Assembly (NCBI GenBank): GCA_050013255.1 | Contig: JBEKFP010000001.1 | Location: 800,001-864,000 of the forward strand | Length of the DNA: 64,000 bases | From: Candidatus Bathyarchaeia archaeon | GTDB lineage: Archaea; Thermoproteota; Bathyarchaeia; 40CM-2-53-6 | Direction: 5' to 3' | Part shown: piece after piece, positions 44,049-55,465 of the stretch | Numbering within the stretch: position 1 is the stretch's first letter | How the letters are laid out: every line of letters starts with the position of its first letter | Program-made: the position numbers and the translations under genes | Notes under the pieces: generated by a model | What the model was told of the DNA's origin: nothing | Database searches by the model: none | The model's input: the letters and a program-made list of their open reading frames with translations, nothing else

Positions 44049-44099
44049 GGTTCTGTTGACTTGTTAACTCGCCGATTTCATTAACTCGTCCGCATCGAC
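44049..44099 (-). mobile_element. Orphan right end of the TnpB element family
   Basis: Minus strand GTCGATGcggaCGAGTTAA...AACAAGTcAACAGAACC matches 55226-55281. Confidence 0.8.
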
Positions 44100-44127
44100 C
44101 GGGCGTCTTTGAACTGGCAAGGGGGGT

Positions 44128-52914: not shown

Positions 52915-53187
52915 TTAGTCAATTGTCTTGGTGAGGTTTAGGAATTTCAATGCGTCGAGTAGGCCTTCAGCATATGCGATTGATGCCAGAGATGTTGTAG
53001 GTTTACCGTTGTCGAAGTAGAATCGTGCGTCCTGCAAGTAGCGATGTATGGCGTCTGAGACCTTCATGATGCTAGCTTCTCCGACCATCTTGCTTTCTTT
53101 CAGTGGGCTATGTTGCCGGAGAGCCTTCTCTAGGGTTGTGATGTATCTGAGTGCGCGTTCCGAAGGGTCTTCGCTCATGTTGCTCAT
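52915..53187 (-). CDS. DUF357 protein
   Basis: YLQDARFY...SLASIAYAEGLLDAL. Confidence 0.88.
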   Translation of the reverse strand: MSNMSEDPSERALRYITTLEKALRQHSPLKESKMVGEASIMKVSDAIHRYLQDARFYFDNGKPTTSLASIAYAEGLLDALKFLNLTKTID

Positions 53188-54011
53188 GCTTTTCCAGCCA
53201 CCAGTTCTTTGCGAGCGCCGCAGAAAAGTTCGAGGGCTTCTACTTCAACAAAATGGAGTTGACCTGGGAATATGATGGCATACGGTGGCTGCCCGAAGTC
53301 GATCTGGATTAGTTCTGAGACGGTGCCGGCCTTGACCTGCATGTCTGGTGCTTCGAGACGGGACATTCCCACAACCAACGTTTCAGGTACTATTGCGGTT
53401 TCTGATTTTCGCTTTGAGACGGCGAGGAGTTGTTTCAAGCCTTCGGGGATGCTTATGTGGCGCTTGTTTTCAACATCCACTTCCAAGAGTACAAGCGAAT
53501 GAAGCCCTGAAGATAAGTTGCGTCTTATGGCTAGGTAGACGCTTTCAGGAAATTCCCCCTGCCAAGAAGCAGGGATTGTTGCAGTTCTCCCAAACTTGTA
53601 CGATTGCAACCCTGTTACACCTGCCGCCGCTGACCCAACCGACGCCGCGTTGATTACGCTGGTTCGAATCCCAGCCTTGTGGACGCGTAGCCGGAGGTCT
53701 ACATGTGTGGTCGCAATCATAGGGTCCCCTGGAACCAGGAACCCAACCTTTTCAGCTTTAGCCCTGGGCAGTATCACCTGCTCGGCCCTTTCTTCAACCT
53801 CAAGGCGCGAGAGTACCTGCACAGGTTTGCCAACGATCTTCTTCAGGTTCTCTAGGTTTAGGCCAGGCATTACACTGGTATAGAATTCCGCAAAGAGATG
53901 GGCGCACGATTTCGCCTCCGATTGGCCTCGAAGTGACATGCCATATTCGTCATGAAGCCCCAAACCGATGAAGACTAACTCCGCCAACACAAACCCCTCT
54001 GAGCTGGTCAT
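53184..54011 (-). CDS. dph5: Diphthine synthase (start 54011 or TTG 53987)
   Basis: FIGLGL, EFYTS, GDPMIATTH, GLQSYKFG, PGQLHFVE. Confidence 0.95.
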   Translation of the reverse strand: MTSSEGFVLAELVFIGLGLHDEYGMSLRGQSEAKSCAHLFAEFYTSVMPGLNLENLKKIVGKPVQVLSRLEVEERAEQVILPRAKAEKVGFLVPGDPMIATTHVDLRLRVHKAGIRTSVINAASVGSAAAGVTGLQSYKFGRTATIPASWQGEFPESVYLAIRRNLSSGLHSLVLLEVDVENKRHISIPEGLKQLLAVSKRKSETAIVPETLVVGMSRLEAPDMQVKAGTVSELIQIDFGQPPYAIIFPGQLHFVEVEALELFCGARKELVAGKA

Positions 54012-54023
54012 TATGCGAACGAG

Positions 54024-55281
54024 GGCACTGTTAACTTGTCGGCCTCATTGCTTTCAGCGACCTCTCATGCCTAAAAGAGGATGAAAGTTTAGGCTAAGTT
54101 ATGCGGGCTGTCAAGACAGTTCAACAACACTACAAACTCAACCCTGAGATTCTACGAATGCTTGACGAGTTCCGCCAGATGATGAACACCTGCACACGGA
54201 TCGGTTTGGCTGAGAATGTTACGAGCCTCAAGGCTTTGTCCCTGAAAGCATACAGGCAACTCGCAACCTACGACGCGATGAGCTACTACAAGTTATGCGC
54301 CATCAGCAGTGCGACCGGCATCCTGCGAAATTATCGGAGGACCGCTCGACATGGAGAGAATCCAACAACCCCTTATGTTCGGCGTTTGAGGTTGACCACA
54401 TGCTACGGATTCAAAATTAAGGATGGCTGCTTGCTGCTCCCGTATCATCCCAGGAAAGCAATCGGAATCCCTCTAACACCCCATGTTCAAGCAACCATTC
54501 GAAAGCACCCGGTTCGTTCGGTCACGTTGACCAAGGATAAGTTATCGCTGACATATGCGAAGCAGGTCGCGGAGGTCAAGCCGAATGGCTTCATCGGCAT
54601 CGATAGGAACCTAAACAATGTCACGTTGGCCGGCACGGACGGTTCGATCATGAAACATGACCTCTCCGACGCGACGCGGGTAAAGGCTACTTACCGTCAG
54701 GTTCGCTCCCGTATGAGGAGGAACGATGTACGCATCCGCCGCGAAATCACGGGCAAGTATGGCTGGAAGCAACAGGAGAAGGTGAATCGAATTCTCCATC
54801 AAGCATCCAAAATGATCGTGCAACAAGCCAAGCAGGGGGGCTTCGGCATCGTGATGGAGCAGCTCACGGGCCTTCGGAAGCTGTATCAACGTGGAAACGG
54901 CCAAGGAGGATGGTATCGCGGCCGGATGAACTCTTGGTCGTATGCGGAGTTACAACGTCAAATCGAGTATAAAGCCCGCTGGGAAGGTTTACCGGTTATC
55001 TATGTTCATCCGCATGGGACAACAGCGAAGTGTTCGATATGTGGGTCTCGCATGGCGAGAATACCCGAAGAGAACCGAACGCTGAAATGTCCGTCGTGCC
55101 GGGTGAGCGTAGACCGCGACGTAAATGCCGCCAGAAACATTCTGGAGAGAGGCGTGAGGTTCGCGCCAATCGCGCTTCCAGTTGAAGCGATGGTACAGGA
55201 ACCCTCCAGCAAGGTAATCCTGAAAGTCGATGGAAGCGAGTTAACGAGTTGAAGCCCATGAGCCAACAAGTTAACAGAACC
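54024..55281 (+). mobile_element. 1258-bp non-autonomous element with IS6-like TIRs and an 8-bp TSD, carrying only tnpB
   Basis: Left end GGCACTGTTAACTTGTCGGC versus reverse-complemented right end GGTTCTGTTAACTTGTTGGC (17/20); flanks CGAACGAG (54016-54023) and CGAACAAG (55282-55289). Confidence 0.8.
54101..55252 (+). CDS. tnpB: TnpB/Cas12f-like RNA-guided endonuclease, catalytic residues intact
   Basis: RuvC-I GIDRN, RuvC-II VMEQL, Zn finger CSIC...CPSC, RuvC-III DRDVNAARNI. Confidence 0.95.
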   Translation: MRAVKTVQQHYKLNPEILRMLDEFRQMMNTCTRIGLAENVTSLKALSLKAYRQLATYDAMSYYKLCAISSATGILRNYRRTARHGENPTTPYVRRLRLTTCYGFKIKDGCLLLPYHPRKAIGIPLTPHVQATIRKHPVRSVTLTKDKLSLTYAKQVAEVKPNGFIGIDRNLNNVTLAGTDGSIMKHDLSDATRVKATYRQVRSRMRRNDVRIRREITGKYGWKQQEKVNRILHQASKMIVQQAKQGGFGIVMEQLTGLRKLYQRGNGQGGWYRGRMNSWSYAELQRQIEYKARWEGLPVIYVHPHGTTAKCSICGSRMARIPEENRTLKCPSCRVSVDRDVNAARNILERGVRFAPIALPVEAMVQEPSSKVILKVDGSELTS

Positions 55282-55289
55282 CGAACAAG

Positions 55290-55299
55290 GCTTTAATTC
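55290..55299 (+). promoter_or_regulatory. Probable TATA box of tRNA-Lys
   Basis: GCTTTAATTC about 30 nt upstream of the tRNA 5' end. Confidence 0.5.
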
Positions 55300-55327
55300 G
55301 TGGGGAAACTTTCTGAAGCTTCCGGGT

Positions 55328-55465
55328 GGGTCCGTAGCTCAGCCAGGTAGAGCGGCGGATTGGGCATGTGTTTGCCAGGCCGAAGCTCTTAACAGCCTGA
55401 GGGAGACCCGAAGGTCGAGAACCACAACAGTGGCCGACAAGGTTCAAATCCCTCCGGACCCGCCA
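55328..55465 (+). tRNA. tRNA-Lys(CUU) with three introns (30/31, 37/38, 51/52)
   Basis: Exons 55328-55358, 55385-55391, 55406-55419 and 55441-55465 splice to GGGTCCGTAGCTCAGCCAGGTAGAGCGGCGGGCTCTTAACCCGAAGGTCGAGGGTTCAAATCCCTCCGGACCCGCCA; each junction forms a BHB/BHL-like motif. Confidence 0.9.

Follow-up and report, generated by a model that had tools for sequence, protein, structure and literature searches.

A tnpB-only element between dph5 and a tRNA gene

Within the window (the whole 64,000-nucleotide stretch of DNA that we analysed, from a peat-soil ammonia-oxidiser-type archaeon), an element of 1258 bp (about 1.26 kb; 54024–55281) with precisely defined ends carries tnpB as its only gene (Table 1). 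The right end, reverse-complemented, reads GGTTCTGTTAACTTGTTGGC, ending at 55281, and agrees with the left end at 17 of 20 positions, or at 18 of 21 when the adjoining G/C is included. The two flanking 8-mers are identical at seven of eight positions. These inverted ends and the 8-bp flanking duplication had been described in a sequence-only reading of the locus, and our re-check of the sequence returned the same agreement, coordinates and letters. The same reading held tnpB to be alone between the ends, with neither tnpA nor a CRISPR array in company. We found one long open reading frame there, with Pfam and NCBIfam matches to TnpB, and no CRISPR array within 53900–55450. A search for the Y1 TnpA domain (PF01797) gave zero matches in the entire genome, whose marker-gene completeness is 100%, while control genomes were positive.

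Four congeneric genomes hold an empty allele between dph5 and the tRNA gene with one CGAACAAG, the very arrangement that the earlier reading had proposed to look for. In the nearest of them (G042), the flank is 92% identical to that in the window, and an 86%-identical TnpB lies at a different site with the duplication CTAAACGT. Because the empty alleles carry a single CGAACAAG and 45 similar elements exist (see below), the boundaries and the duplication are more than chance, and the insertion between dph5 and the tRNA gene is shown to be precise and to have duplicated 8 bp. The tRNA gene is intron-bearing; its Rfam match of 26.8 bits falls short of the gathering score, and ARAGORN reports no tRNA in the window. 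Short stretches of the left end and the tRNA intron region are complementary (pairs I8 and I12), which was taken as chance. The stretch is also present in 19 public peat or wetland DNA runs, with contigs that span the left junction; none of their contigs joins across the element, and the empty allele was not seen among them. The left end region 5' of tnpB, up to about 54075, presumably holds transposase-binding sequences together with a putative promoter.

Table 1 Features of the tnpB element and its flanks (positions of the window)
Feature	Position	Strand	Remarks
ATG, W-T-R motif directly 5' of the left duplication	54013..54015	+	Host DNA; candidate TAM
Left 8-bp target-site duplication CGAACGAG	54016..54023	+	One mismatch to the right copy; single CGAACAAG in empty alleles
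Left terminal inverted repeat GGCACTGTTAACTTGTCGGC	54024..54043	+	Similar end in 45 elements
Left end region 5' of tnpB	54024..54100	+	Kept to ~54075 in miniature copies (genome-wide DNA search)
tnpB	54101..55252	+	383 aa; RuvC D/E/D and C4 zinc finger intact
Covarying helices of the omegaRNA-like scaffold	55147..55236	+	Overlap the tnpB 3' end
Right terminal inverted repeat ...GCCAACAAGTTAACAGAACC	55262..55281	+	omegaRNA scaffold predicted to end here (3' end)
Right 8-bp target-site duplication CGAACAAG	55282..55289	+	Seen in empty alleles
Predicted guide (duplication and ~8 nt of right flank)	55282..55297	+	From the geometry; length inferred from characterised TnpBs

A TnpB with intact catalytic residues and a candidate omegaRNA scaffold

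The tnpB product carries the sequence hallmarks of an OMEGA effector, namely the RuvC D-E-D triad, a zinc finger and the TNB domain. It matches Pfam Cas12f1-like_TNB (PF07282; 9.6e-22), NCBIfam guided_TnpB (127 bits; cut-off 100) and PDB entries of both TnpB and Cas12f. In an alignment of 11 proteins, with TnpB copies 41–86% identical, the RuvC residues D168, E253 and D340 are conserved, the zinc-finger cysteines C311, C314 and C330 are invariant and C333 occurs in at least 90%, which agrees with the earlier statement that all three acidic residues and the zinc finger are intact.

The stop codon of tnpB is 29 nt short of the right end. Over its last ~135 nt, the element shows a conserved fold with strong covariation. 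Compensatory changes support 17 of the 21 scaffold pairs, all of which form in the window copy; cells of the scaffold are paired in 92.6%, compared with 25–41% when the partners are slid as a control. The DNA of the scaffold is conserved even where the reading frame of relatives differs, and miniature inverted-repeat derivatives (MITEs) retain ~290 nt of the right end versus ~60 nt of the left. From the 3' end of tnpB to the right end, the element thus seems to encode the structured 3' scaffold expected of an omegaRNA. The sole RNA contig, from a metatranscriptome, covers 54959–55117 with four differences; it may come from a related copy, and speaks neither for the expression of this copy nor for its RNA ends.

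A mobile family in Nitrososphaerota

In this and related genomes of Nitrososphaerota, we identified 45 distinct elements with like inverted ends and with differing 8-bp duplications that match at seven or eight of eight positions, as the earlier reading had anticipated. The family comprises tnpB-only elements of ~1.26–1.34 kb and miniature derivatives of 100–500 bp, which retain nothing but the ends and the 3' RNA portion, and it ranges over Nitrososphaerales, Nitrosopumilus and Nitrosotalea, reaching Bathyarchaeia. Two MITEs in the genome of the window match query positions 25–86 in a genome-wide DNA search. At least 12 near-identical copies are present in each of two Nitrosopumilus genomes, one of them a complete chromosome. 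Homologues lacking the left repeat, or accompanied by a Y1 tnpA, had been named as grounds for abandoning the proposed interpretation; the homologous loci keep the left repeat, and the genome of the window has no Y1 gene. As a separate observation, the inverted copies L174 and L175 of Nitrosopumilus show one reciprocal swap of their duplications, which fits recombination between copies and does not reveal its mechanism.

IS6-like transposons have ends of the same family as the element

The genome encodes two transposases, at C1:183281-184531 and C2:560130-561260, that combine a SWIM module with a DDE_Tnp_IS240 domain above the Pfam cut-off. Both genes sit in transposons of their own (3.1–3.7 kb) with GG..CTGT ends that lie 0.9–1.7 kb away from them: in C1:182371-185509, the ends agree at 21 of 24 positions and the duplication CGCATCAG at 8/8, and in C2:559197-562918, the values are 19/23 and, for GCTGGGCC, again 8/8. 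Ten further such transposons in relatives have duplications matching at 7–8 of 8 positions. Together, these transposons share the end family of the element (GGTTCTGT..), duplicate 8 bp and span 2.7–6.7 kb, with a methylase, HNH and other genes among their cargo. The left end of transposon L229 (genome G080) agrees with the right end of the element in the window at 20 of 24 positions, and an end of L219 resembles the ends of this genome's own MITE at C1:262180. Over the first 9 nt, the right end in the window and the family consensus are identical to the published IS6/IS26 end consensus GGTTCTGTTGCAAA (PMC6807381), which the L218 transposon matches at 12 of its first 14 nt. For three IS240 genes of Nitrosopumilus, a wider pattern search placed a second end 3–5 kb away, with matching duplications missing in two of the three transposons.

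The sequence-only reading had called for an IS6 (DDE_Tnp_IS240) transposase with matching ends. Such enzymes exist in this genome and its relatives, but they depart from canonical IS6/IS26 members. The best NCBIfam match of the transposases, transpos_IS6, reaches 114.8 bits (cut-off 125; the next, IS1, 52.7), and with 340–416 aa, including SWIM and zinc-ribbon modules, they are twice the usual IS6 length. We call the partner IS6-like because of this score below the IS6 cut-off, its size, the N-terminal zinc modules and the cargo-bearing transposons of 2.7–6.7 kb. From the shared ends, we infer that the tnpB element is moved in trans by an IS6-like transposase. Three observations count against this: the two transposons of this genome match the ends of tnpB elements over the outer 8–11 nt only, the closest end match (20/24) comes from another family of the order, and in genus g2, which is represented by incomplete MAGs, these TnpBs occur in 12 of 22 genomes but an IS240 domain in only two of 22. 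On the whole, comparison of these genomes supports the earlier proposal of a non-autonomous TnpB element mobilised by an IS6-type enzyme.

A one-sided motif next to the insertion sites

When we aligned the flanks of 41 tnpB-oriented elements, 38 had W-T-R directly 5' of the left duplication (P about 2e-33), with T at position -2 in 40/41 and a purine at position -1 in 41/41. The mirrored right side showed W-T-R in 7/41, which is not significant. Transposase-only transposons had the motif on either side in three cases out of 12, about the chance level; this control is small, and a different choice of targets by their transposases is conceivable. The 8-mer of the nearest empty allele (G042) is preceded by GTG, which is not W-T-R. 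The one-sided motif, itself new here, fits a TAM for a guide composed of the duplication and the right flank. Taken together, the covarying structure inside the right end and the one-sided TTR fit an omegaRNA that ends in the inverted repeat and a guide that starts with the duplication.

Relation to known TnpB carriers

The role accepted for TnpB is the restoration or homing of IS200/IS605 and IS607 elements; their transposases excise without a scar, and their target site also serves as the TAM. Like IS1341-type elements (e.g., the ISDra2-type OMEGA), the element in the window has a typical DRDxN TnpB as its sole gene and a scaffold that overlaps the tnpB 3' end, and its guide is predicted to derive from the sequence past the right end, with the TAM at the left flank. 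IS200/IS605 (IS1341) elements, however, have neither inverted ends nor a duplication, end in hairpins, use a Y1 HUH enzyme and have a target site that equals the TAM; here, we find 20-nt inverted ends, an 8-bp duplication and a genome without Y1, and both hallmarks of that group are absent.

The element resembles the IS6/IS26 family (IS26, IS257, IS6100 and the archaeal ISH14/ISH29 group) in ends that start with GGTTCTGTT, with GG at positions 1–2 and G at position 7, in its 8-bp duplication, in the DDE_Tnp_IS240 catalytic domain of its presumed partner and in having MITE derivatives, which are known in that family. Canonical members are 0.7–0.9 kb long with one transposase of 210–250 aa, in contrast to the larger enzymes and transposons found here. 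The 8-bp duplication is the mark of the IS6 family, and only one passenger-carrying member is on record (PMC7986276); Harmer and Hall (PMC6807381) argued that the archaeal members are not true IS6/IS26.

TnpB on DDE transposons was published in 2023: the main text of Altae-Tran et al. (2023, PNAS, PMC10691335) described DDE-associated TnpB branches (DDE-1 to DDE-6), along with solo TnpBs that have the same ends. As in those DDE-TnpBs, tnpB here lies between DDE inverted terminal repeats with its 3' end less than 250 bp from the transposon end, and as in the solo copies, its ends are common to transposase-bearing relatives, in our case SWIM-IS240 transposons. The partners given in that text and in the text of a 2026 review (PMC13565253) are of the IS630, ISL2 and IS1031 types, and neither the main text of the former nor the text of the latter mentions an IS6-like partner. 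Compared with the systems set out in that main text (PMC10691335), two features differ: tnpB and the transposase never occur in cis, and the predicted guide begins with the duplication, which is 8 bp long. Fanzor proteins carried by DDE transposons of eukaryotes (Bao and Jurka 2013, PMC3627910) likewise combine a TnpB-type nuclease with inverted ends and target duplications, but their hosts are eukaryotic or giant-virus elements with other transposase superfamilies and a transposase that is often in cis.

What moves the element and what selects its sites

Most solo tnpB genes belong to the IS200/IS605 family (PMC10691335), which would favour an ordinary IS1341-type gene moved by a Y1 or serine TnpA, with repeats that are chance or parts of hairpins. 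We regard this explanation as refuted, its probability being practically nil, by the 45-element set with inverted ends and differing duplications, the empty site that proves a true duplication and the absence of Y1_Tnp from the genome; DDE-encoding transposons that bear the same ends point the same way. It is very improbable, too, that the mover is a DDE transposase of a non-IS6-like family, encoded, for instance, by a virus or plasmid or in a repeat missing from the assembly. The many genus g2 genomes with tnpB copies and an undetected IS240 domain favour such a source, as do IS630-type DDE_3 genes inside two Nitrosopumilus copies, and further transposase families also make 8-bp duplications. 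The IS630-type genes, however, are nested insertions at differing positions of the element, the IS630 family duplicates TA, and we rejected them as partner. Moreover, every transposase found between such ends with an 8-bp duplication is of the SWIM and IS240 type (12 transposons in three families of the order and Nitrosopumilus).

The TTR motif, in turn, could reflect a target preference of the transposase or its transpososome, the match to a TAM being coincidental or secondary. New insertions should mirror the choice of the transposase, and such a high frequency of the motif among recent, near-identical copies is explained more easily by targeting than by later sorting. There is also a weak A/T preference at the mirrored position -3 (33/41), and two elements with terminal inverted repeats and without omegaRNA (one with SET cargo, and L146) have W-T-R on one side. 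Even so, we consider this reading unlikely: DDE transpososomes normally have symmetric target preferences, whereas the mirrored side shows none; transposase-bearing transposons with the same end family rarely have the motif on either side; and it sits exactly where a 5' TAM would be required if the guide starts at the right end. T-rich 5' TAMs or PAMs are usual for TnpB and Cas12f. Less probable still is that TnpB and its RNA are inert cargo, or act on the host, for instance through RNA-guided repression, and do not home. This would suit IS6-type replication, which leaves no empty donor to restore, but it sits poorly with a D/E/D triad and zinc finger conserved across such divergent copies, a covarying scaffold and recently mobile elements, and the TTR flank bias would go unexplained if the nuclease were idle.

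A model of transposition in trans and homing

In our preferred reading, which we consider probable, the element is a non-autonomous DDE-type transposon that has an OMEGA module (tnpB and omegaRNA scaffold) as its only cargo, is moved in trans and homes. The omegaRNA would be transcribed through the tnpB 3' end and the right inverted repeat, so that its guide would consist of the 8-bp duplication and the right flank. With this guide, the TnpB–omegaRNA complex would recognise the empty allele (TTR, a single 8-mer and the right flank) and cut it, and the occupied allele would then be copied in by recombination. This would also account for the one-sided TTR motif, since only insertions 3' of a TAM would gain such a drive and reach frequencies visible in assemblies. 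The geometry predicts that TnpB would leave both junctions of an occupied site intact: at the left junction, the candidate TAM would be followed by merely eight matching bases, and at the right junction, the full match would be preceded by ..AACC, which is not a TAM.

Bacterial IS6 members form replicative cointegrates and leave no empty donor. If the same applies here, the benefit of TnpB would have to be homing into empty alleles, not donor restoration. This leads to a further proposal, which we hold only tentatively and judge about evenly poised, leaning slightly against: the nuclease, not the transposase, may decide which insertions persist. With a guide made of the duplication and the flank, only copies 3' of a TTR TAM could cut and convert empty alleles, and an OMEGA module would amount to a portable gene-drive cassette, compatible with a replicative IS6-like transposase and independent of scarless excision. 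In a bolder variant, TnpB at TAM sites would help to direct integration.

A compact archaeal TnpB of 383 aa with a predicted short TAM and many guide-bearing MITEs may interest tool developers. For the biology of the family, the contrast between omegaRNA-bearing elements and transposase-only transposons (38/41 versus 3/12) offers a natural experiment on whether a nuclease shapes the insertion landscape. In conclusion, a TnpB family with high abundance and recent activity in ammonia-oxidising archaea appears to ride a transposon of another class, which has inverted ends, duplicates 8 bp and, as its ends suggest, relies on an IS6-like DDE enzyme in trans.

Ends, coding content and empty alleles of the element

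The sequence-only reading had placed an intact TnpB between inverted ends flanked by 8-mers, and the window sequence agrees on both. The left end and the reverse-complemented right end are identical at 17/20 positions, with the 8-mer CGAACGAG outside the left end and CGAACAAG outside the right. The encoded protein matches Pfam Cas12f1-like_TNB (9.6e-22) and NCBIfam guided_TnpB (127 bits; cut-off 100), and its closest solved structures are TnpB and Cas12f. Integrity of the RuvC acidic residues and the zinc finger is borne out by an alignment of 11 homologues (41–86% identical), where D168, E253 and D340 (DRDVNAA motif) as well as C311, C314 and C330 are invariant and C333 is kept in at least 90%. 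The tRNA on the right begins 39 nt past the right target duplication and 47 nt past the element's right end; it has intron-like insertions, is missed by ARAGORN, and its Rfam score lies below the gathering score of 29.

Four congeneric genomes (G042, G048, G046 and G044) have the dph5–tRNA junction without the element. The empty allele of G042, with a 92% identical flank, reads ...TTTGTG CGAACAAG GCTTTAAT... and then has the same tRNA, which is kept in the congeners holding the empty site, and the other three junctions are equivalent. Because these junctions carry a single 8-mer, the element runs from exactly 54024 to exactly 55281 and its insertion duplicated the 8-mer; the predicted empty allele with a single CGAACAAG is thus present in four congeners. 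The left duplication copy changed at one base after insertion. Since G042 carries an 86%-identical TnpB at a different site (duplication CTAAACGT), the family moved after species divergence.

Coordinates of the tnpB element, its neighbours and related elements in the same genome (window coordinates unless contig C1 or C2 is given)
Feature	Position	Length or strand	Details
Left end of tnpB element	54024-54043		GGCACTGTTAACTTGTCGGC
Right end of tnpB element	terminates 55281		reverse complement GGTTCTGTTAACTTGTTGGC
tnpB	54101-55252	383 aa	sole long ORF between ends
TP_methylase-family gene, diphthine-synthase-like	53184-54011	minus	left neighbour of element
Intron-bearing tRNA	55328-55462		Rfam 26.8 bits; right neighbour of element
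Second tnpB element	C2:62149-63427		protein 61% identical; duplication CAGGATCT
Miniature copy	C2:477462-477819		duplication GGAATGTG
Miniature copy	C1:668604-668959		duplication AAAGCAAT
Miniature copy	C1:262180-262529		duplication CTTAATGC
Miniature copy	C1:685793-685901		duplication CCTAACTC
Miniature copy	C2:82803-83527		duplication GGGCTAGG
IS6-like transposon L235	C1:182371-185509	3139 bp	ends GGTTCTGTCAAAAGTACGGGAGAT / GGTTCTGTCAAACGAGCGGGAGAT, 21/24; perfect duplication CGCATCAG
IS6-like transposon L236	C2:559197-562918	3722 bp	ends 19/23; perfect duplication GCTGGGCC

Distribution of the family

Besides the second tnpB element and the miniature copies (MITEs), the window's genome (2.46 Mb, 3 contigs; the window is C1:800001-864000) holds several right-end remnants of the family, one at window 44049. 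This ~55-nt orphan (44049-44103, minus orientation) comprises the right end and the 3' part of the RNA, starts GGTTCTGTTGACTTGTTAAC, and has neither tnpB nor a partner end nearby. An order-wide search found close TnpB homologues in 37 of 105 genomes and 11 of 25 genera, and most of the loci that were fetched share these ends and have 8-bp duplications. Relatives in a species-wide scan come from soil Thaumarchaeota/Nitrososphaerota, Nitrosotalea, Nitrosopumilus, Nitrosotenuis and Bathyarchaeia. In two Nitrosopumilus genomes, one of them a complete chromosome, there are at least 12 near-identical copies each, 1286–1291 bp long, plus MITEs; perfect duplications flank 16 and 8, respectively, of the fetched copies. 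A uniform search yielded 46 elements that have the two ends and whose duplications agree at 7–8/8 positions; 45 of them are distinct. Further copies with the same kind of ends and different 8-bp duplications, the check proposed for the sequence-only reading, therefore exist. Two inverted copies in one Nitrosopumilus genome (L174 and L175; G106 C1:1325308-1326598 and 1451399-1452689) have exchanged duplications, each left 8-mer being the other's right, which is probably the footprint of a 126-kb inversion via recombination between copies.

A candidate partner transposase and other cargo

A search of the whole genome found no Y1 transposase, in keeping with the reported lack of tnpA at the element. 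Two genes in the genome do encode a DDE_Tnp_IS240 domain together with a SWIM finger and a zinc ribbon; they share 57% identity, and each is contained in a transposon of its own (L235 and L236). Their top-scoring NCBIfam model, transpos_IS6, gives 114.8 bits and so falls just short of its cut-off (125); the next family reaches 52.7. In relatives, we found ten more transposons of 2.7–6.7 kb with a SWIM-IS240 transposase, GGTTCTG. ends and 7–8/8 duplications. The left end of one of them, L229 in a genome from another family of the order (GGTTCTGTTAACTTAACGGCGCAT), shows 20/24 identity to the right end of the window element; those of L219 resemble the ends of the MITE at C1:262180, and those of L218 start GGTTCTGTTGCG. 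For comparison, the bacterial IS6/IS26 end consensus, in which GG and G7 hardly vary, is GGTTCTGTTGCAAA (PMC6807381), and an 8-bp duplication marks the IS6 family (PMC7986276). Transposons with the postulated IS6-type DDE transposase and matching ends are represented twice in the same genome and ten times in relatives. Given the IS6-like ends and duplication and a matching enzyme in the same genome, mobilization of the tnpB element in trans by such a transposase is well supported. It is not proven, since the transposase-bearing transposons of this genome share only the outer 8–11 nt with the ends of the tnpB element, and since the IS240 domain was not detected in many genus g2 MAGs that carry TnpB elements. 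IS630-type (DDE_3) genes in two Nitrosopumilus loci (L143 and L144 in G106) were rejected as partners: each is nested within the tnpB element at a position of its own, and one of the two insertions disrupts tnpB.

In L235 and L236, several small ORFs without known family accompany the transposase gene, and a 17-nt palindrome (TGCCACAATATTGTGGC) and a conserved small gene lie upstream of it. Related ends move non-TnpB cargo as well, because a 445-bp element in the window's genome (C1:681796-682240; L234:97-541), whose ends are related and whose 8-bp duplication is perfect (CAAAAGTG), carries only a 127-aa SET-domain ORF (Pfam 4.6e-14). Transposase-bearing transposons of Nitrosopumilus (L211 and L212, in G105/G106) contain an N6_N4_Mtase DNA methylase (1e-42) or an HNH endonuclease, which suggests cargo of restriction-modification type; one also carries a tRNA gene. 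A 1659-bp stretch between weaker GGTTCTG. inverted repeats (C1:1228749-1230407), with GGGGGTGG on either side in a G-rich context, encodes small membrane-like ORFs and might represent a further cargo element or match by chance only.

A conserved RNA structure at the 3' end

MITEs retain ~60 nt of the left end versus ~290 nt of the right side, the latter spanning the zinc-finger-coding part of tnpB to the element end. Aligning the last ~135 nt of 25 sequences from Nitrososphaerales and Nitrosopumilus gave a consensus structure of 21 pairs, 17 with compensatory double changes. Paired cells amount to 92.6%, compared with 25–41% when partners are slid by 1–3 columns, and the covariation score is 0.58 versus about 0.1; none of 500 shuffles reached the observed values. 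The window copy forms all 21 pairs, at 55147-55236. The block GGTAATCC.GAAAGTCGATG is conserved as DNA even though the frame differs in some relatives, which points to selection on RNA rather than protein. This predicted structure has the appearance of an omegaRNA scaffold.

A motif at the left flank and its interpretation

We tabulated the flanks of 41 elements, oriented by tnpB or the RNA part. Immediately 5' of the left duplication, position -3 is T in 31 and A in 8, position -2 is T in 40, and position -1 is always a purine (G in 27, A in 14). W-T-R is thus present in 38/41, compared with an expected 0.11 (P about 2e-33; Nitrosopumilus 24/25, Nitrososphaerales 14/16). At the mirror position past the right duplication, 7/41 carry it, a non-significant number. 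In the window copy, the three bases (54013-54015) are ATG. The motif sits exactly where a 5' TAM, the recognition signal needed by TnpB, must lie if the guide starts directly after the right end, and the order in the empty allele is TTR, single 8-mer, right flank. Caution on the TAM reading comes from the nearest empty allele (G042), which now reads GTG rather than W-T-R.

Such a motif could also reflect transposase preference alone. Among 12 control transposons with a transposase and without TnpB, 3 show W-T-R at the duplication, on either side, which is about chance and, for a small control, argues against this. Alternatively, the nuclease or the transpososome might direct itself to TTR. The most economical reading of these flanks is that TAM-adjacent insertions are favoured via TnpB-driven conversion of empty alleles: they alone would gain such conversion and could thereby attain the frequencies that assemblies record. 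In the inserted allele, the left junction would retain the TAM, followed by no more than 8 matching bases, and the right junction the full match preceded by ..AACC, so the occupied site should be immune.

Relation to known TnpB carriers

A 2023 paper (PMC10691335) already described TnpB between DDE-transposon inverted repeats as well as solo TnpBs sharing ends of this sort, and a 2026 review names ISL2, IS630 and IS1031 as DDE partners (PMC13565253). Among the papers searched, we found no description of an IS6-like partner; the 2021 IS6 review lists one passenger-carrying member and two MITEs (PMC7986276). The features that define IS200/IS605 are absent from the window element; it matches the DDE-associated TnpB kind and is an IS6-like element, not a canonical member of IS6/IS26. 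As an observation, the IS6-like TnpB carrier is confirmed, and its interpretation is supported. TTR is a candidate TAM, and TnpB-driven homing may shape where these elements occur.
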